Shown: in pieces, positions 7,257-38,310 of the stretch
Numbering within the stretch: the first letter of the stretch is position 1
Layout of the letters: every line of letters begins with the position of its first letter
From: a phage
Sequence record: PX946180.1
Reading direction: 5' to 3' (one strand)
Length of the DNA stretch: 38,310 nt
The notes under the pieces: model-generated
Told to the model about the DNA's origin: nothing
Databases searched by the model: none
Seen by the model: only the letters and a program-made list of their open reading frames with translations
Position numbers and translations under genes: made by a program

Positions 7257-9104
7257 ATGAGCGTCATCTCTATTGACAAACACGACTTCTCTGATGTGTC
7301 GAACGCCATTGAGCCGTTTAACCTGCTGGCTGACCACTACGGGCAAGACCTCGCAGTAAAGCAGCTTCAGCTTGAGCATGAGGCATACACTGAAGGCGAG
7401 CGACGTTTCATCAAGAACCTTGAGCGCCAGACTGAGCGCGGGGAACTGGCAGACAATCAGGTCGCCAAGCCTTTGATGCAGACTCTGGTCCCGACCATCG
7501 CTAAGGCTTTCCGTGAGTGGCATGAAGGCCCGGACGGTAAGTCCTCGACCTCTCGTCCAAGCGTAGCGTTCACCATGCTGAGCACTGACGAGAAGGCTGT
7601 CAAAGACCGCTCTCTGCTCATCTCTGCGGAGTCTGCTGCGGTCATCATACTGAAGGTCATTCTCAGCAAGCTGGTCAAGCCTGAAGGCATCCCGATAACT
7701 CCTATGGCGTCCGCGATAGGTCGAACACTGGAAGATGAAATCCGCTTTGGTCGCATCCGTGATCAGGAGAAGGAGCACTTCAAGAAGGCGATAGCTGAGA
7801 ACCTGAACAAGCGCGCAGGGGTATCCTACAAGAAAGCCTACATGCAAGCGGTTGAGACCTCCATGTTGGAGCAAGGCCAACTGGAAGATGCCTGGGGAAC
7901 TTGGAGTCCGACCGAGGCGGTCCATGTTGGCATCAAGATGCTTGAGATTGTCATCCAGTCTACTCAACTGGTAGAGCTTAAGCGTTATGGTGCTGGCAAT
8001 GCAGCGGCGGACGTTGAGATGGTCCACCTGTCAGACTTCTGGGTCAAGAAGATGGCTCAGCGTGGCTTCTCTCTTGCGGGAATCGCTCCAGTCTACCAGC
8101 CATGCGTAGTTCCGCCTAAGCCGTGGACCGGGGTGGTGGGTGGTGGGTACTGGGCTAAAGGCCGAAGACCACTACCACTGATTCGCTTAGGGTCTAAGTC
8201 TGCGGTGGCACGTTACGAAGATGTATACATGCCTGAAGTCTACGACGCTGTGAATATCATTCAGAATACACCTTGGAAAGTGAACAAGAAGGTTCTGAAC
8301 GTGGTGAACATGGTCGAGAAGCTGAACAACACGCCTATTGATGACATCCCTCAGATGGAACCGCTGAAGCCTGAGGACTATGCGGGTGAGACTGAAGAAG
8401 AACTTAAGGCATGGAAGAAAGCTGCTGCCGGTATCTATCGCCGCGAGAAGGCCCGACAGTCACGAAGATTGTCACTGAGCTTTATCGTTAACCAAGCGAA
8501 CAAGTTCTCTCAGTTCAAGGCTATCTGGTTCCCGTATAACATGGATTGGCGAGGTCGTGTCTACGCTGTCCCGATGTTCAACCCTCAGGGTAACGACATG
8601 CAAAAGGGACTCCTGACTCTGGCAGTCGGTAAGCCTATTGGTGCTGATGGTTTCAAATGGCTGAAGGTACGCAAGAAGGATACCACTCGTCTGAACCTGA
8701 TGTTCTTAGGGTCATTCAACCTTCAGCCTACAGTCAACAAAGGCGCGAAGAAAGAGCTTGACAAACACAAGCAGGAGTCAGGTATTAGCCCGAACTTCGT
8801 CCACTCACAAGATGGCAGTCACCTCCGCAAGACTGTAGTCCACACGCACCGCAAGTATGGCGTGATGTCGTTCGCAGTGATCCACGATAGCTTCGGGACC
8901 ATCCCGGCTGACGCTGAGTATCTGTTCCGTGGTGTCCGTGAGACGATGGTCGAGACCTACCGCGACAACGATGTGCTGCTTGACTTCTATGAGCAGTTTG
9001 AATACCAGCTTCATGAGAGCCAGCGCGACAAGCTGCCAGAGCTTCCGAAGAAAGGTGAACTGAATATCGAAGACATCCTGTCTTCAGACTTTGCATTCGC
9101 TTAA
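7257..9104 (+). CDS. T7-like single-subunit RNA polymerase with ~268-codon internal in-frame deletion (catalytic motifs A and B missing; probably non-functional)
   Basis: 615 aa versus 883 aa for T7 RNAP; N-terminal ~464 aa and C-terminal ~151 aa are collinear with T7 (promoter-binding domain, specificity loop, HKQESG..FVHSQDGSHLRK, IHDSFGT, terminal FAFA); junction GFKWLK/VRKKDTTRLNLMFLG at about 8664-8669; no DGSCSG or TLAYGS motif anywhere in the ORF. Confidence 0.85.
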   Translation: MSVISIDKHDFSDVSNAIEPFNLLADHYGQDLAVKQLQLEHEAYTEGERRFIKNLERQTERGELADNQVAKPLMQTLVPTIAKAFREWHEGPDGKSSTSRPSVAFTMLSTDEKAVKDRSLLISAESAAVIILKVILSKLVKPEGIPITPMASAIGRTLEDEIRFGRIRDQEKEHFKKAIAENLNKRAGVSYKKAYMQAVETSMLEQGQLEDAWGTWSPTEAVHVGIKMLEIVIQSTQLVELKRYGAGNAAADVEMVHLSDFWVKKMAQRGFSLAGIAPVYQPCVVPPKPWTGVVGGGYWAKGRRPLPLIRLGSKSAVARYEDVYMPEVYDAVNIIQNTPWKVNKKVLNVVNMVEKLNNTPIDDIPQMEPLKPEDYAGETEEELKAWKKAAAGIYRREKARQSRRLSLSFIVNQANKFSQFKAIWFPYNMDWRGRVYAVPMFNPQGNDMQKGLLTLAVGKPIGADGFKWLKVRKKDTTRLNLMFLGSFNLQPTVNKGAKKELDKHKQESGISPNFVHSQDGSHLRKTVVHTHRKYGVMSFAVIHDSFGTIPADAEYLFRGVRETMVETYRDNDVLLDFYEQFEYQLHESQRDKLPELPKKGELNIEDILSSDFAFA

Positions 9105-24128: not shown

Positions 24129-25013
24129 ATGTCTCAATCAGTTTATGCCGAGTTCGGCGTTAGCTCTAATGCAATCACTGGTTCCGTTGAGGACCTGAAC
24201 GAACACCAGAAGTCTATGCTTGAACAGGACGTAGCTGTTCGTGATGGCGATGACGCTATTACCTTCAAGCAACTGGAAGCCGAGAACGAAGAGGCGACCG
24301 AAGAAGACGAGAACGTCGAAGAGACTGAAGGTGAAGACGACCACGAGTCCGATGACGAAGAGTCAGAGACCGATGGTGAGCAGCCTGAGTTCATCGAACT
24401 TGGTGATGCACCGAAAGAGCTGACCGAAAGTGTCGCCGCTCTTGATGAAAACGAAGCCGCATTCGACGACATGGTGTCTTCTGCTGTAGAAGCTGGCAAG
24501 GTCACTGCTGATGAAATTACCGCTATCAAGGCCGAATACGCCAAGGACGGTAAGCTGTCTGACGCATCCTACGCTAAGTTGCAGGAAGCAGGTTACACCA
24601 AGCGTTTCGTAGATTCGTTTGTCCGTGGTCAGGAAGCTCTGGCTGAACAGTACGCTGCTGGTGTGGTTCGCTATGCTGGTGGTGCTGAACAGTTTAATCG
24701 CATCCTGTCACACCTTGAGTCTAACGACCCGTCAACTCGTGAAGCACTGGAAGCTGCTATCGTTCGTAAGGACATTGCTACTACCAAAGCTCTGCTGAAT
24801 CTGGCTGGCAAGACTCTGGGTAAAGCTGTAGGCGTCAAACCTCAGCGTACCATCACCACTCAGGCTAAACCTGTGGTCGCACCTAAGGCTCCTCAGACCG
24901 AAGCATTCAGCTCCAAGGCTGACATGATTAAGGCTATGAGTGACCCGCGATACCTGCGTGACGCTAAGTACACGATGGAAGTTCGCGCTAAGGTAGCCGC
25001 CTCAAGCCTGTAG
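24129..25013 (+). CDS. capsid assembly scaffolding protein (T7 gp9-like)
   Basis: 294 aa from ATG 24129 (AAGGAG 9 nt upstream; tracker ORF starts at an upstream TTG); highly acidic middle; SYAKL.E.GYTK.F.DS..RGQEAL.EQY and KAMSDPRY match recalled T7 gp9. Confidence 0.92.
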   Translation: MSQSVYAEFGVSSNAITGSVEDLNEHQKSMLEQDVAVRDGDDAITFKQLEAENEEATEEDENVEETEGEDDHESDDEESETDGEQPEFIELGDAPKELTESVAALDENEAAFDDMVSSAVEAGKVTADEITAIKAEYAKDGKLSDASYAKLQEAGYTKRFVDSFVRGQEALAEQYAAGVVRYAGGAEQFNRILSHLESNDPSTREALEAAIVRKDIATTKALLNLAGKTLGKAVGVKPQRTITTQAKPVVAPKAPQTEAFSSKADMIKAMSDPRYLRDAKYTMEVRAKVAASSL

Positions 25014-25014
25014 G

Positions 25015-25037
25015 ACTAAACTATCACTATAGGGAGA
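25015..25037 (+). promoter_or_regulatory. phage RNAP late promoter (phi10-like), +1 G at 25032; 5' stem-loop in the leader
   Basis: GACTAAACTATCACTATAGGGAGACCA, best match to the T7 class III TATAGGGAGA start; leader GGGAGACC...GGTTTCCC can form an 8-bp stem as in the T7 phi10 transcript. Confidence 0.85.
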
Positions 25038-25139
25038 CCAAGAGAAAGACTCAAGGTTTCCCTATTACTTCAGTCCATACGGATTGGGCATACAGTAAGT
25101 AATAAACTTTATCTTTCAATTGTATAGGAGAATTATCAT

Positions 25140-25839
25140 ATGGCAAACGTTCCGGGTCAGAAAATTGGTACAGACCAAGGTAAAGGCAAATCCAGTTCCG
25201 ACGCTAATGGCTCTCCTGTGTAACCTCCCGGCTGCATCCAACGAGAACATTGCCGGTCTGGGCACTGCGTCAGTACTTGAAGTTGGTACTAAAGCCGACC
25301 TGAACACTCCGGCTAAGCTGGGTGAAGCAATCATCGGTCAACTGACCATTGCTCGTGCGAAGCTGACCTCCAACTACGTTCCTGCTGGCGACCGTTACTT
25401 CTACACCACGCCGGACAACTACTCTGCAATCCTCGCGGCTCTGATGCCGAACGCTGCCAACTATGCTGCGCTGATTGACCCAGAGACTGGTAACATCCGT
25501 AACGTGATGGGCTTCGTTGTTGTTGAAGTCCCGCATCTGGTGCAGGGTGGTGCTGGTGAGACCCGTGGTGACGATGGCATCACTATCGCTTCCGGCCAGA
25601 AACACGCATTCCCGGCGACTGCTGCTGACGATGTTAAAGTTGCTATGGACAACGTTGTGGGTCTGTTCTCTCACCGTTCTGCTGTGGGTACTGTGAAGCT
25701 GCGTGACTTGGCGCTGGAACGTGACCGTGACGTCGATGCTCAGGGCGACCTGATTGTTGGTAAGTACGCTATGGGTCACGGCGGCCTGCGTCCAGAAGCG
25801 GCAGGCGCACTGGTTTTCACAGCGGCGCTGGGGGGTTAA
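25140..25839 (+). pseudogene. major capsid protein gene (gene 10A), disrupted: first 16 codons and last ~205 codons present, ~120 central codons missing, junction out of frame
   Basis: ATG 25140 with RBS encodes MANVPGQKIGTDQGKG (matches the recalled T7 gp10 N-terminus) then stops at 25221-25223 after 27 codons; the +1 frame from about 25213 encodes LCNLPAASNENIAGLGTAS... to the stop at 25839, collinear with T7 gp10A residues ~145-345; only ~810 nt separate the phi10 start site from the capsid stop. Confidence 0.8.
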
Positions 25840-26102
25840 CGACCTTTAAGGCCCTCTCTACAGAGGGTCCTACCTTAGAGATGTACAGTTCTACGGTGGG
25901 GACCAGCCTGAAGGTTGACTTCCCTGAGCTTTCAGATGTGACCGATTGGTCGCTGCTTGAGGTGACTACGCCTGATGGTGTTAGCTACTCCCGTAGAACC
26001 AACAGTCTCTACTTCAAGGCCACCTCTGGCGTGGAAGGTCTAGTGATTGTTGAGTATGACGGTTCGCCTGTGCGTTCCTTCAACGTATCTTTCACAAACT
26101 AA
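25812..26102 (+). CDS. minor capsid 10B C-terminal extension reached by -1 programmed frameshift at GGTTTTC
   Basis: Slippery heptamer G GTT TTC at 25812-25818, five codons before the 10A stop, the same site as in T7; the -1 frame is open from there to the stop at 26102 (tracker ORF 25881..26102 is its 3' part); extension is rich in beta-strand-like residues. Confidence 0.65.
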   Translation, partial: GFHSGAGGLTTFKALSTEGPTLEMYSSTVGTSLKVDFPELSDVTDWSLLEVTTPDGVSYSRRTNSLYFKATSGVEGLVIVEYDGSPVRSFNVSFTN

Positions 26103-26105
26103 TTG

Positions 26106-26148
26106 AAACCCCTTGGGTGCCTTCGGGTGCTTGAGGGGTTTTTTTTGC
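26106..26148 (+). terminator. rho-independent terminator, T7 Tphi equivalent
   Basis: AACCCCTTGGGTGCCTTCGGGTGCTTGAGGGGTTTTTTTT: GC-rich hairpin followed by a run of eight T; directly after the capsid gene as T7 Tphi is. Confidence 0.85.
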
Positions 26149-26161
26149 TTAAGGAGGTCCT

Positions 26162-26728
26162 ATGGCTCAATACATTCCACTGAATGCTAACGATGACTTA
26201 GATGCCATCAACGATATGTTAGCTGCTATCGGTGAACCAGCAGTCCTGCAGCTTGACGAAGGTAACGCTGACGTCTCGAACGCACAACGTATCCTGCATC
26301 GTGTCAATCGTCAGGTCCAAGCTAAAGGCTGGAACTTTAACATCAACGAAGCTGCTGTACTGACACCTGATGTCCAAGACAATAGGATTCGATTCCTGCC
26401 GTCATACCTTCGTGTAATGACTGCCGGGGCCACCAGCTACTACAGCAACATGGGTGGATACCTGTACGACCTATCCACTCAGTCAACCACTTTCACCGAC
26501 CCTATAACGGTAGAGCTTGTTGAGATGAAACCGTTCTCTGAGATGCCTGTGGTATTCAGGGACTACATCGTTACCAAGGCCAGCCGTGAGTTCAACGCTA
26601 AGTTCTTCGGTAGCCCAGAGTCTGAACTGTACCTTCGTGAGCAGGAAGCAGAACTCTATCAGCAGGTCATGGAATACGAGATGGACACTGGTCGCTACAA
26701 CATGATGTCCGACATCGGGAGGGACTAA
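26162..26728 (+). CDS. tail tubular protein A (T7 gp11-like)
   Basis: 188 aa; IGEP, NA.RIL..NRQ.Q..GW.FNI.E, TKASR.FN..FFG.PE and EYEMD.G.YNM match recalled T7 gp11. Confidence 0.92.
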   Translation: MAQYIPLNANDDLDAINDMLAAIGEPAVLQLDEGNADVSNAQRILHRVNRQVQAKGWNFNINEAAVLTPDVQDNRIRFLPSYLRVMTAGATSYYSNMGGYLYDLSTQSTTFTDPITVELVEMKPFSEMPVVFRDYIVTKASREFNAKFFGSPESELYLREQEAELYQQVMEYEMDTGRYNMMSDIGRD

Positions 26729-26955
26729 TGGCAGCGCATAATCTGAAGATTCACCGCCAGCACTTTGGTCCGGTACAACTAGGCCTAAAGACAGCAGAAC
26801 TGAGACTTAACGACCGGGACTTTAAGGTTGGCGACTGGCTTATCCTGAATGAGTGGGACAACGGGTATACTGGGCAACAGGTAGCACGTAAGGTTGTCCA
26901 CATTGCTGACGTTGGTGACATCGCTGAGGGATACGTCCTAATGAGTATGATTTAA
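26728..26955 (+). CDS. small ASCH/DUF3850-like protein inserted between tail tubular genes
   Basis: 75 aa; pattern H..HFGPV..G.KTAELRLNDRDFKVGDWLILNEWD..YTG resembles the DUF3850/ASCH small PUA-like fold as I recall it; T7 gp11 and gp12 are adjacent with no gene between. Confidence 0.55.
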   Translation: MAAHNLKIHRQHFGPVQLGLKTAELRLNDRDFKVGDWLILNEWDNGYTGQQVARKVVHIADVGDIAEGYVLMSMI

Positions 26956-36691: not shown

Positions 36692-38310
36692 ATGTCCACG
36701 ATTACACAATTCCCTTCAGGAAACACTCAGTACAGGATTGAGTTCGACTACCTAGCCAGAACGTTTATTGTTGTTACGCTGGTGAATAGCTCTAACCCTA
36801 CCCTGAACCGTGTACTGGAAGTTGGTCGAGATTACCGATTCCTTAATCCAACGATGCTTGAGATGTTGGTTGACCAATCAGGTTTCGACATCGTTCGTAT
36901 TCACCGTCAGACTGGAACTGACTTAGTGGTAGACTTCAGGAATGGCTCAGTGTTGACAGCTAGTGACCTGACCAATGCAGAGCTTCAGGCTATCCATATT
37001 GCAGAAGAAGGTCGAGACCAAACTGTTGACTTAGCGAAGGAATATGCCGATGCTGCTGGTAACTCTGCTGGCAACGCTAAGGACAGCGAGGACGAAGCAC
37101 GCCGAATCGCTGAGAGTATCAAGGCAGCTGGTCTAACTGGCTATATTACCCGTAGATCCTTCGAGAAAGGCTTCAACGTTACAACATGGAACGAGGTCCT
37201 GCTATGGGAGGATGATGGTGAATATTACCGCTGGGATGGTACGCTCCCAAAGAACGTTCCTGCTGGCTCAACTCCTGAATCATCTGGTGGAATTGGATTA
37301 GGAGCGTGGGTTAGTGTTGGTGATGCATCGCTGAGATCTCAGATAGCCTCCGTAACCGGATTTAATCTTGTAGGTCAGGTGCCAGATGTAACTACATTAC
37401 GCAATACAGAACCGACAACAGACAGCAAGAGAATCCTCCTTCGCGAATACACAGCAGGCACAGGATATGGTGGCGGTCAGTTACGAGCAATCCTTGACGG
37501 AAGCTCTTACGTTGACAACGGCGTTACTGTGTTTAAAACAACTGGTGGTGCTGCATGGGTCCGCGTTAACGCAGATATCATTACATCCTTCATGGCGGGT
37601 GCTGTGCCTGATGCAGGTACTACTGATAACACGGCTGCTATTAATCGCTTCCTCGCCGCAGGTAAGAAATTGGTTATGAGGGATGGTATCTTTGGTCATT
37701 CTGGTCAAATTTCTTTGCAAACAGGTATATCTCTTGATTTATCTGGAGCGACAATAAAACCATCATCGACTCTACTCACCGCTGCTTGGGTGGGGAGCAA
37801 CTTGTTTGATGTAAAAATAACCGGCGGCGTGTTTGAAGGAACTGGCTTGGACAATACAGCTGGCAACGGCCATCTTTTGCTGCTTTCTAATTGCCAAGGG
37901 TGCTACGTAGATGGCACTACATTTACGAAATCTCCGCAGGATGGATTGCGATTTGTATCTTGTACACGATGTATTGCGAGTAACGCTATTTCGTACAACA
38001 ACCTTTCTGTAGGTATTCAAGACCGCGATGGGGATTACAACACTATCATTGGGTGTAAATGTAACGGTAATGGTAATACAGGAACGGTTGCTGGAGTTGG
38101 TGGTCGAGGTATTCTCACATGGCGTAGCTTTGGCACAAAAGTTATCGCCTGTGACGCGTTCAATAACACAGAGTATGGCATTCGGGCATATTCGCAAGCA
38201 GGAGATTCCAGAGGTTCGACTCAAATCCTGATTAGTGATTGCCACACCGGCGATAACACTAAGATTGATATTTACGTGTACAACGAAATCGGAAGCCTGT
38301 CTGAGATACT
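36692..38310 (+). CDS. tail fiber/tailspike, 5' part (T7 gp17-like N-terminal adaptor plus start of beta-helix domain); continues at 1..857
   Basis: ATG 36692 with AAGGAGG RBS; N-terminal ~150 aa resemble the recalled T7 gp17 tail-attachment domain (FDYLAR.F.VVTL, DYRF, LV.DF..GS.L.A.DL, HIAEE.RD); frame stays open to the window end and continues at position 1; total about 782 aa. Confidence 0.9.
   Translation, partial: MSTITQFPSGNTQYRIEFDYLARTFIVVTLVNSSNPTLNRVLEVGRDYRFLNPTMLEMLVDQSGFDIVRIHRQTGTDLVVDFRNGSVLTASDLTNAELQAIHIAEEGRDQTVDLAKEYADAAGNSAGNAKDSEDEARRIAESIKAAGLTGYITRRSFEKGFNVTTWNEVLLWEDDGEYYRWDGTLPKNVPAGSTPESSGGIGLGAWVSVGDASLRSQIASVTGFNLVGQVPDVTTLRNTEPTTDSKRILLREYTAGTGYGGGQLRAILDGSSYVDNGVTVFKTTGGAAWVRVNADIITSFMAGAVPDAGTTDNTAAINRFLAAGKKLVMRDGIFGHSGQISLQTGISLDLSGATIKPSSTLLTAAWVGSNLFDVKITGGVFEGTGLDNTAGNGHLLLLSNCQGCYVDGTTFTKSPQDGLRFVSCTRCIASNAISYNNLSVGIQDRDGDYNTIIGCKCNGNGNTGTVAGVGGRGILTWRSFGTKVIACDAFNNTEYGIRAYSQAGDSRGSTQILISDCHTGDNTKIDIYVYNEIGSLSEI
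38184..38310 (+). repeat. assembly overlap: exact copy of positions 1-127 (circular contig artifact)
   Basis: Direct comparison: 38184-38310 is identical to 1-127 and lies inside the tail fiber coding sequence. Confidence 0.9.

Follow-up and report, generated by a model that had tools for sequence, protein, structure and literature searches.

Organization of the gene 10 locus

The window, by which we mean the whole 38,310-nucleotide stretch of phage DNA analysed here (PX946180.1), comes from a Kayfunavirus, a K1F-like relative of T7, and its capsid region is 93–97% identical to that of many isolates. Alignment showed that positions 25020–25205 are homologous to the relatives' copies at the start of gene 10, and we corrected the gene 10 start codon to the ATG listed in Table 1. 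Relative to every relative examined, gene 10 of the window has lost approximately 350 bp out of frame, removing about 117 codons of the capsid body; the left BLAST block ends at 25205 and the right one begins at 25207, such that 351 bases of the relative are reduced to one. Because this deletion is out of frame, translation of gene 10 ends after 27 codons. Capsid genes of intact relatives match the Pfam Gp10A-like family (PF21703, E = 2.5e-104), and the shift site lies in such a T7 Gp10A-like major capsid gene (HK97 fold), the copy in the window being interrupted by the deletion. Neither 10A nor 10B can be made from the window, and therefore the frameshift mechanism considered below is inoperative here, the upstream deletion blocking ribosomes in the 10A frame. 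The window genome carries deletions in two essential genes, gene 10 and the RNA polymerase gene; these may mark a defective genome or be assembly artefacts. A search for a record of the deleted RNA polymerase product found none, and in IMG/VR the 33-mer spanning the gene 10 deletion junction was absent, as was a control 32-mer.

Downstream of the deletion, the zero frame reads CTG GTT TTC ACA GCG GCG CTG GGG GGT TAA across the heptamer G GTT TTC, which is identical to the shift site of T7. From the heptamer onward the −1 frame runs on beyond the 10A stop and closes just before a Tphi-type terminator. An earlier note on this DNA had described a T7-type slippery sequence at the equivalent position of a Gp10A-like gene, a −1 frame open for about 96 codons, and a shift signal that survived in a damaged capsid gene. 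All three descriptions hold, the peptide it quoted is correct, and both the site and the extension are intact despite the deletion. Its placement of the heptamer five codons before the 10A stop needs amending, as six sense codons intervene. The extension is indeed longer than that of T7, as the note had also proposed, although its comparison mixed two measures; like for like, the lengths are 96 versus 58 codons in the −1 frame, or a net addition of 88 versus 53 residues. We consider it very likely that this locus is the 3′ end of a K1F-like (Kayfunavirus) gene 10 with a T7-type programmed −1 ribosomal frameshift. The 10A/10B junction of T7 itself was reportedly described as a −1 programmed ribosomal frameshift by Condron, Atkins and Gesteland in 1991, and is reviewed in PMC5009743.

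Table 1. Coordinates of gene 10 features in the window
Feature	Position	Strand	Details
Gene 10 5′ remnant (major capsid)	25140..25223	+	ATG 25140, 27 codons, premature TAA 25221–25223
Internal gene 10 deletion junction	25205..25207	+	BLAST of the window against related loci L001–L004 and MZ234021
Gene 10 3′ two-thirds, 10A frame	25207..25839	+	Ends ...GHGGLRPEAAGALVFTAALGG*; 93–97% identity with the capsid genes of relatives
Slippery heptamer G GTT TTC (Val-Phe in zero frame)	25812..25818	+	Sequence read; same heptamer in T7
−1 ORF, predicted 10B-specific C-terminus	25812..26102	+	96 sense codons and TAA 26100–26102
Extension linker (about residues 3–20)	25818..25871	+	Predicted disordered; pLDDT < 50 at residues 1–20
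10A stop TAA	25837..25839	+	Sequence read
Two-tier RNA hairpin (predicted)	25844..25880	+	Outer stem 25844–25851/25873–25880, inner stem 25852–25857/25862–25867, loop CUAC
Predicted Ig-like beta-sandwich, extension residues 21–96	25872..26099	+	Seven strands; unnamed family, phrog_7473
Tphi-type intrinsic terminator	26105..26150	+	3 nt after the 10B stop; 17-pair stem and T-run (terminator scan)

The −1 frame is conserved as a probable C-terminal extension of the capsid protein

Homologous extensions were found in 455 phage records, with the domain conserved down to approximately 40% identity over five genera. No lineage has a closed −1 frame, while the +1 frame shuts within a few codons, and in 76/76 loci from these five genera the −1 frame is unbroken back to the heptamer. 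In two comparisons, substitutions were skewed to third codon positions of the −1 frame (15/15/44 and 19/11/36). In keeping with the frameshift reading, 154/154 members of the family are ORF calls of 64–87 aa on T7-like contigs of about 40 kb. In intact relatives the predicted 10B is 437 aa and 10A is 349 aa, a net gain of 88 residues. After the slip, 10B is predicted to read ...GALVF-HSGAGGLTTFK...SFNVSFTN, with a predicted junction peptide of ...GALVFHSGAGGLTTFK and a predicted junction tryptic peptide of YAMGHGGLRPEAAGALVFHSGAGGLTTFK. In GenBank, the Peacock 'minor capsid protein' and the CR8 10B are joined −1 frameshift CDSs, Pisces also carries a 10B annotation, and Klebsiella Przondoviruses have 'minor capsid protein' calls; the frameshift-added extension is an ordinary feature, already known and annotated in relatives. 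A note in the CR8 record, which marks 'tttt' as the shift site, mentions mass-spectrometry matches; the note names no extension-specific peptides, and the CR8 genome paper has nothing on 10B. Translation of the extension in the long-tail lineage is predicted from GenBank annotation and sequence, and the anatomy and conservation of the locus point to a domain attached C-terminally to a virion structural protein via a programmed frameshift.

The same DNA could instead be a separate small gene, with its own start codon or translated by termination-reinitiation at the 10A stop, that encodes a free Ig-like capsid decoration of 64–87 aa. Many GenBank records and gene callers list it in this way, as a 'hypothetical protein' or 'putative minor capsid protein'. 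Phages of the PE3-1/LS2 lineage have an ATG, with AAGGG upstream, that overlaps the 10A stop (TAATG), an ACG-to-ATG change unique to the window creates an ATG at 25881, and free Ig-like decoration proteins do exist in T7-like phages, e.g. P2_50 of Peru-2 (PMC13320782). However, the called starts scatter over at least six alignment columns with no conserved start codon, and most relatives have ACG or AAC at the ATG positions. A frame kept open all the way to the heptamer is needless for an independent gene, and the residues between heptamer and called start belong to a linker of conserved length. We therefore regard a separate gene as improbable and retain the frameshifted 10B tail as our reading. 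Hundreds of T7-like genomes split the extension off as a 'hypothetical protein', and recognising it as a frameshifted 10B tail corrects their annotation.

Conservation of the slippery heptamer

We found GTTTTC in the 10A frame in 76/76 related loci from at least five genera of the Studiervirinae, and the genera in which it accompanies a homologous −1 extension are Kayfunavirus, Caroctavirus, Przondovirus, Ningirsuvirus and Pektosvirus. Among 62 unique sequences GTTTTC is invariant, while the first base of the heptamer is G in 59, C in two and A in one. The Val codon of the shift site is GTT in 62/62 unique sequences, compared with 42% GTT usage over the rest of these genes, in which Phe is almost universally encoded by TTC. 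The site and its relation to the frame are thus kept in relatives beyond amino-acid constraint. The window contains two copies of GGTTTTC against 3.8 expected. This copy count alone is not above chance; the significance of the heptamer comes from its position, frame and conservation. Counting against the frameshift reading, the variable first base means that the heptamer does not preserve tandem re-pairing for the P-site tRNA; the slip may involve just one tRNA, on U UUC.

A conserved run of T's could also act at the level of the transcript, with the phage RNA polymerase slipping on it to give some mRNAs with a one-base deletion. We consider this very improbable, although the invariant core does hold four T's, the same letters that the CR8 record marks. 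A four-base run is shorter than the homopolymer tracts known for productive transcriptional slippage, which counts against it, and the G and C that flank the run, relevant to codon re-pairing, are conserved as well. That transcriptional slippage can also generate such products is established (PMC5009743), but the literature treats the identical T7 site as ribosomal (PMC5009743, PMC1635266).

That the −1 frame is open by chance or as a relic and gives no product, its heptamer kept for the Leu-Val-Phe of 10A, accords with the lack of heptamer enrichment, the near-universal use of TTC and the dead capsid gene of the window, but is already effectively refuted by comparative data, namely a homologous domain over five genera with third-position-biased substitutions and an invariant GTT, together with a confident fold prediction.

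The extension is predicted to be an Ig-like domain of an unnamed family

It had been suggested from the letters alone that the extension forms an Ig-like surface domain, and the structure prediction bears this out. AlphaFold2 modelled residues 21–96 as a confident seven-strand beta-sandwich following a disordered linker of about 20 residues, which is the least conserved stretch of the protein alignment. The top structural matches were Ig-like domains, among them the lambda gpV C-terminal domain, filamin, invasin and Hoc-like proteins, and we conclude with high confidence that the model describes an Ig-like beta-sandwich on a flexible linker. By sequence, the extension matches phrog_7473, a PHROG family of unknown function, over profile positions 2–82 of 82 (E = 3.1e-36). 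It belongs to none of the recognised Ig-like sequence families (Big_2, I-set, FN3): the sole Pfam match at E ≤ 1 was a spurious one to a peptidase, hhalign against the Big_2 domain of T3 gave a probability of 0.2%, and a sequence search of PDB chains gave chance-level matches only. Weak multi-repeat profile matches were to proteins with Big_2, Big_1 or BACON domains. In the literature, including that on Przondovirus and Klebsiella phages, we found no published account of the fold of this domain.

The best structural match, the C-terminal domain of lambda gpV (PDB 2L04), is, like the T4 Hoc-like and N4 capsid decorations, a non-essential, surface-exposed Ig-like module on a phage structural protein. 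It differs from the extension in sequence (13–15% identity), in its host protein, which forms the tail tube, and in being encoded in frame, without a frameshift. Ig-like domains added by frameshifting to phage structural proteins have been described (Fraser et al. 2006, cited by PMC13320782).

A conserved RNA hairpin lies beyond the classical stimulator spacing

A search for a downstream stimulatory structure, which the earlier note had called for, returned a mixed answer. No stimulatory structure was found at the classical spacing of 5–9 nt from the shift site, which counts against the frameshift reading; a conserved hairpin is predicted 20–25 nt away, outside that spacing. In the window it begins 4 nt 3′ of the 10A stop and 25 nt 3′ of the heptamer, with a local fold of −16.8 kcal/mol. 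Every lineage has a hairpin in the corresponding position, and it covaries; 29 Przondovirus sequences keep the equivalent hairpin with two compensatory pairs. Over the 119 nt that follow the site, folding is only modestly better than in shuffles (z = −2.3), and the large irregular minimum-free-energy structure starting 9 nt downstream, which derives from a single sequence and has this z against shuffles, was rejected as a conserved element. We also set aside ribosome queuing behind a stall at the 10A stop; the heptamer lies just 5–8 codons from the stop, which would be less than disome spacing.

The terminator is 100% identical to that of K1F, and the Tphi of T7 and of T3 lies in the corresponding place. 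Its stem holds CCCC at 26110–26113; in T7 the CCCC of the terminator affects gene 10 frameshifting (PMC5009743). A permissive-threshold search of Rfam found no described element, the sole match being NsiR1 (E = 0.46, below the gathering score), which overlies the terminator and was dismissed as chance.

One could go further and propose that the hairpin is a non-canonical element that sets the 10A:10B ratio, e.g. together with the terminator CCCC, and that the extension is an uncharacterised Ig-like family serving as an exchangeable display cassette in at least five Studiervirinae genera. We put this forward tentatively, as a proposal that is rather unlikely to hold in full. If true, its reading of the hairpin could help account for a long-range effect on the T7 gene 10 frameshift that has long gone unexplained. 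The conserved hairpin also provides a way to test what tunes gene 10 frameshifting of the T7 type.

Proposed route to 10B in intact relatives

The present analysis itself establishes how the locus is laid out, that site and frame are conserved, that the −1 frame is under coding constraint, which fold is predicted and where the cassette begins and ends (see below). On the programmed frameshift reading, most ribosomes on the gene 10 mRNA of an intact relative would read Leu-Val-Phe-Thr-Ala-Ala-Leu-Gly-Gly-stop and yield the major capsid protein 10A. A minority would move back by one base at G GUU UUC, with tRNA-Phe re-pairing from UUC to UUU, and would yield 10B, in which the last six residues of 10A give way to 94 new ones. 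Of these, about 20 are predicted to make up a flexible linker and the next 75 or so an Ig-like beta-sandwich. 10B would co-assemble with 10A, so that a fraction of capsid subunits would show the Ig-like domain outside the head, where its most likely role would be that of an accessory adhesin with weak binding to carbohydrates or mucus, a role that other Ig-like domains of phages have been proposed to play. From work on T7, K1F and T3 we infer that the slip is ribosomal, as well as its efficiency, the incorporation of 10B into the capsid and the adhesin role. In T7, 10B accounts for ~10% of gene 10 translations (PMC1635266). The K1F g10b arises from a −1 frameshift and its fusion to GFP gives viable fluorescent phage (PMC6277420); it serves as a display scaffold (PMC13370021). 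Carbohydrate or mucin binding has been reported or proposed for T3 10B and others (PMC13320782). The engineering of capsid display in K1F-like and Klebsiella phages could draw on this natural Ig-like display module and its linker.

Alternative tails at one shift site

Like the window, T7 has G GUU UUC, named G_GU(U UUC) (PMC5009743), near the stop of a homologous Gp10A-like gene and a −1 stop just before a CCCC-containing Tphi. Its heptamer is separated from the 10A stop by three sense codons as opposed to six, and its extension, which has no Pfam match, is not Ig-like, in contrast to the T3 10B, a frameshift-derived Ig-like domain (PMC5009743). The T3 domain is of similar size to that of the window (net +86 aa) and is likewise followed by Tphi, but it is a Pfam Big_2 domain (E = 4.7e-10) reached from a different shift site, C CCA AAG. 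K1F is of the same genus as the window and shares the heptamer and ~90% identical flanks along with the terminator, yet its tail is short and T7-like (50 codons in the −1 frame, net +44), and the Ig-like module of the window is unrelated to it. CR8 (HG818824), Peacock (MK903279), Pisces (MK903277) and Klebsiella Przondoviruses have the same heptamer and a homologous extension with 47–97% identity, and differ from the window not in kind but in that gene 10 of the window is broken.

Judged by these sequence comparisons, the extension behaves as a cassette between the shift site and Tphi that is swapped with the short K1F/T7-type tail. The short K1F-type module was found in 72 records and the Ig-like module in 455. 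Two alternative modules at one shift site constitute a natural experiment on the role of capsid Ig-like domains in adsorption or mucus adherence, and among relatives an identical gp11 is adjoined by either module.

The shift site and its reading frames

At the end of the major capsid gene the window reads CTG GTT TTC ACA GCG GCG CTG GGG GGT TAA in the capsid frame. Reading of the sequence bore out the heptamer, the 96-codon −1 frame and the peptide reported in the earlier note, whose sole slip on coordinates was to count five codons from heptamer to 10A stop, where we count six sense codons. Within 24600–26500, a candidate late promoter-like sequence of T7 class (…ACTATCACTATAGGGAGACC) was picked out by eye. 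Directly before the stop, a six-G run at 25830–25836 creates another heptamer-like sequence that reads G GGG GGT in the 10A frame, and a slip there would enter the same −1 frame as the main heptamer; it is present only in the window and PQ464628, other relatives having TCA GCG GGT.

Features of gene 10 and of the second damaged gene in the window
Feature	Position	Strand	Details
Phage RNA polymerase ORF	7257–9104		615 aa vs 893 aa in MZ234021
Gene 10 start	ATG 25140	+	preceded by a ribosome-binding site
Gene 10 deletion junction	left block ends 25205, right block starts 25207		351 relative bases replaced by one
Slippery heptamer GGTTTTC	25812–25818	+	sequence read
−1 frame	GGT 25812 to TAA 26100–26102	+	96 sense codons open; sequence read
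10A stop	25837–25839	+	sequence read
Hairpin	25844–25880		outer stem 25844–25851/25873–25880; inner stem 25852–25857/25862–25867
Intrinsic terminator	starts 26105	+	17-pair stem and T-run
Gene 11	starts 26162	

Conservation of the site and of the −1 frame

The heptamer alone is not above chance (2 copies in the window vs 3.8 expected), and the evidential weight lies in its context. The comparison drew on GenBank phages and IMG/VR and took in 76 related loci, with 62 unique sequences among them, spanning Kayfunavirus, Caroctavirus (CR8), Przondovirus (Klebsiella phages), Ningirsuvirus (Dickeya W2B), Pektosvirus and one unassigned lineage. GTTTTC lies in the same frame, 5–8 codons upstream of the capsid stop, in 76/76 loci. 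Among the unique sequences the first heptamer base is G 59 times, C twice and A once, and this variation suggests that P-site tRNA re-pairing is not essential. The Val codon at the shift site is GTT in 62/62, whereas GTT accounts for only 42% of Val codons in the rest of these genes. The homologous extension is in the −1 frame in all lineages, with the +1 frame meeting a stop after only a few codons. By −1-frame codon position, the variable columns of the extension number 15/15/44 among close Kayfunaviruses and, where the Przondovirus version is folded, 19/11/36. As a reference, the end of 10A scored in its own frame gives 1/0/24 in the Kayfunavirus clade (1/0/23 in another count) and 5/2/33 in the Przondovirus clade. 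Together, the conserved site and frame, the invariance of GTT and the third-position bias indicate, at the level of sequence comparison, that the extension is protein-coding, under purifying selection and entered from the capsid frame.

In gene-caller output and in many GenBank records the extension is set apart as a 64–87-aa ‘hypothetical protein’. We rejected its reading as an independent gene, as the called starts occupy six or more alignment columns, with no conserved start codon. The window’s ATG at 25881, which opens a 73-aa ORF over the Ig-like domain (25881–26102), is a private ACG-to-ATG (Thr-to-Met) change where relatives have ACG. In the PE3-1/LS2 sub-lineage (the PE3-1-like IMG/VR locus L014; proteins P0001–P0005), a TAATG stop-start overlap has AAGGG just upstream of the ATG, and termination-reinitiation could supplement frameshifting there, though not generally. 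Among 5.8 billion proteins searched, 154/154 family members are small ORFs on ~40-kb T7-like contigs, so that this slot is the only place where the domain is found. One Przondovirus-type extension ORF (P0039) is deposited as a partial Flammeovirga agarivorans protein on a 562-bp contig, likely a phage contaminant in a bacterial assembly. In Escherichia phage ZG49 (L015/NC_047777) homology of the extension stops at residue ~55, beyond which the sequence is unrelated and hydrophobic, so that this record probably holds a frameshifting indel inside the Ig-like domain.

A conserved hairpin beyond the 10A stop

The earlier note had called for a search for a downstream stimulatory structure. No structure at the classical spacing of 5–9 nt after the heptamer is conserved across lineages, but a stable hairpin is present in every lineage 2–17 nt past the 10A stop, 20–35 nt past the heptamer, with a lineage-specific sequence. 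The 119 nt 3′ of the site form a fold only modestly better than that of shuffled sequences (z = −2.3). In Przondoviruses (29 unique sequences; L018–L020 and 29 IMG/VR loci) the equivalent 18-pair two-tier hairpin, directly past the 10A stop at +27 to +69 from the heptamer, is almost never broken; compensatory change has occurred at two adjacent pairs (G-C/A-U and U-A/C-G), alongside wobble-preserving changes. The segment encoding it has no third-position bias (6/4/5) and codes for a disordered linker. The maintained pairing, absent bias and disordered product point to selection at the RNA level, and the hairpin may modulate frameshifting from a distance or act in mRNA stability or processing.

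Predicted fold of the extension

The extension has no family in Pfam and a PDB sequence search returned no relative; its sole family match is phrog_7473, of unknown function. AlphaFold2, given a 40-sequence alignment, returned a model with mean pLDDT 79.8, in which disorder is predicted for residues 1–20 (pLDDT below 50) and a seven-strand all-beta domain for residues 21–96 (pLDDT about 90). The top Foldseek match in the PDB was the Ig-like domain at the C-terminus of gpV, the lambda tail tube protein (2L04), followed by domains of the filamin, titin, LigA and Rib kinds and by the capsid decoration protein of N4. The earlier guess of an Ig-like surface domain is thus supported, as a prediction. 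When 1.84 billion representatives were searched exhaustively by profile, the matches were the phage ORFs, plus only weak multi-repeat ones in large proteins with Big_2, Big_1/invasin or BACON repeats. We found no published description of the fold of this family.

Exchange of the 10B tail

K1F differs in carrying a short T7-like tail of 50 −1-frame codons, a net gain of 44 aa that agrees with the ‘44 triplets’ reported for its extension (PMC6277420). The window and K1F are ~90% identical up to GGTTTTCA and then unrelated throughout the extension, until 100% identity resumes at the last AAC TAA and runs through the entire terminator. The K1F-type tail occurs in 72 phage records, including P762, which is among the window’s closest relatives elsewhere in the genome. 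The Ig-like module occurs in 455 records, about 137 at ≥60% identity (Kayfunavirus-like) and about 318 below 60%, mostly Klebsiella Przondoviruses. An identical gp11 protein adjoins either tail type. These flanking identities and the shared gp11 thus indicate that the 10B tail is a cassette delimited by the shift site and Tphi, the terminator after gene 10, as expected of promiscuous phage Ig-like domains. K1F-type tails at 94–98% identity also appear in MT350292 (Enterococcus phage EFA-1) and in Acinetobacter-, Providencia- and Hafnia-named records, probably reflecting mislabelled hosts or contaminant phages.

Relation to known systems and proposed mechanism

The T7 heptamer is identical to that of the window. 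For T7 gene 10, G_GU is given as X_XX, and frameshifting shows an unexplained long-range dependence on a terminator CCCC >200 nt downstream (Atkins et al. review, PMC5009743); 10B makes up about 10% of gene 10 translations (PMC1635266). K1F g10b is an accepted −1 frameshift product and has served to display GFP and adhesins (PMC6277420; PMC13370021). The T3 extension, unlike that of T7, is a frameshift-derived Ig-like domain (PMC5009743). T3 shifts at C CCA AAG, unlike the window, and its extension belongs to Pfam Big_2 (E = 4.7e-10), with no profile similarity to the window’s domain (hhalign probability 0.2%); the T7 and K1F tails match no family. The window locus therefore combines a T7-type site with a T3-like outcome through a third, unnamed Ig-like family.

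Homologous extensions are annotated in GenBank as frameshifted 10B in Peacock and CR8, and as ‘minor capsid protein’ in Pisces and several Klebsiella phage records; the mass-spectrometry note in the CR8 record is non-specific, and the CR8 paper adds no detail on 10B. The earlier observation is confirmed and its interpretation supported, but the feature is an ordinary one that relatives' records already annotate. What goes slightly beyond the existing record is limited to the Ig-like family without a name, the exchange of the cassette and the hairpin with its covarying pairs.

Beyond what was observed here (the anatomy and conservation of the locus, the constraint on its coding, the predicted fold and the limits of the cassette), we propose from T7, K1F and T3 that a minority of ribosomes would slip −1 on G GUU UUC, the Phe-tRNA shifting from UUC to UUU, and continue on CAC AGC GGC… to give …GALVF-HSGAGGL…. 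The product (437 aa vs 349 aa for 10A in intact relatives) would co-assemble with 10A and present the Ig-like domain at the capsid surface on a linker of about 20 residues, where it would probably, by analogy, adhere weakly and multivalently to carbohydrates or mucus (PMC13320782).

Deletions and genome layout

The region is 93–97% identical to many Kayfunavirus isolates (K1F-like, subfamily Studiervirinae), and each relative’s match is split in two, with ~350 bp of capsid gene body missing from the window. The heptamer and −1 frame are intact, and the earlier claim that the signal survives in a damaged gene is correct. The deletion is out of frame, and translation from the gene 10 start therefore halts after 27 codons, at TAA 25221–25223. 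The two-thirds of the gene that remain (25207–25839) are unreachable in the 10A frame, and the shift signal therefore cannot work in the window genome. Beyond GCT, the junction has no obvious direct repeat or microhomology; its 33-mer is absent from IMG/VR, as is a control 32-mer, so that the absence shows only that this collection lacks the source genome. A second clean deletion removes 834 bp (278 codons, in frame) from the RNA polymerase gene, with its junction at ~8669 (window 8640–8700), and no public assembly holds a record of the exact shortened product. Mapped whole on MZ234021, the window is a near-complete, circularly permuted genome. Whether real or artefact, two essential genes are damaged in an otherwise intact sequence.

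Between gp11 and gp12 lies a 75-aa DUF3850/ASCH-like gene (26728–26955), shared with most relatives and missing, among loci L079–L082, from L082. The distal tail-fibre part of the window has no match to the closest relatives. The window starts and ends within the tail-fibre gene (1–870 and 37336–38310), permuted relative to standard T7-like maps, and an ORF of >500 codons runs through the end-to-start join.
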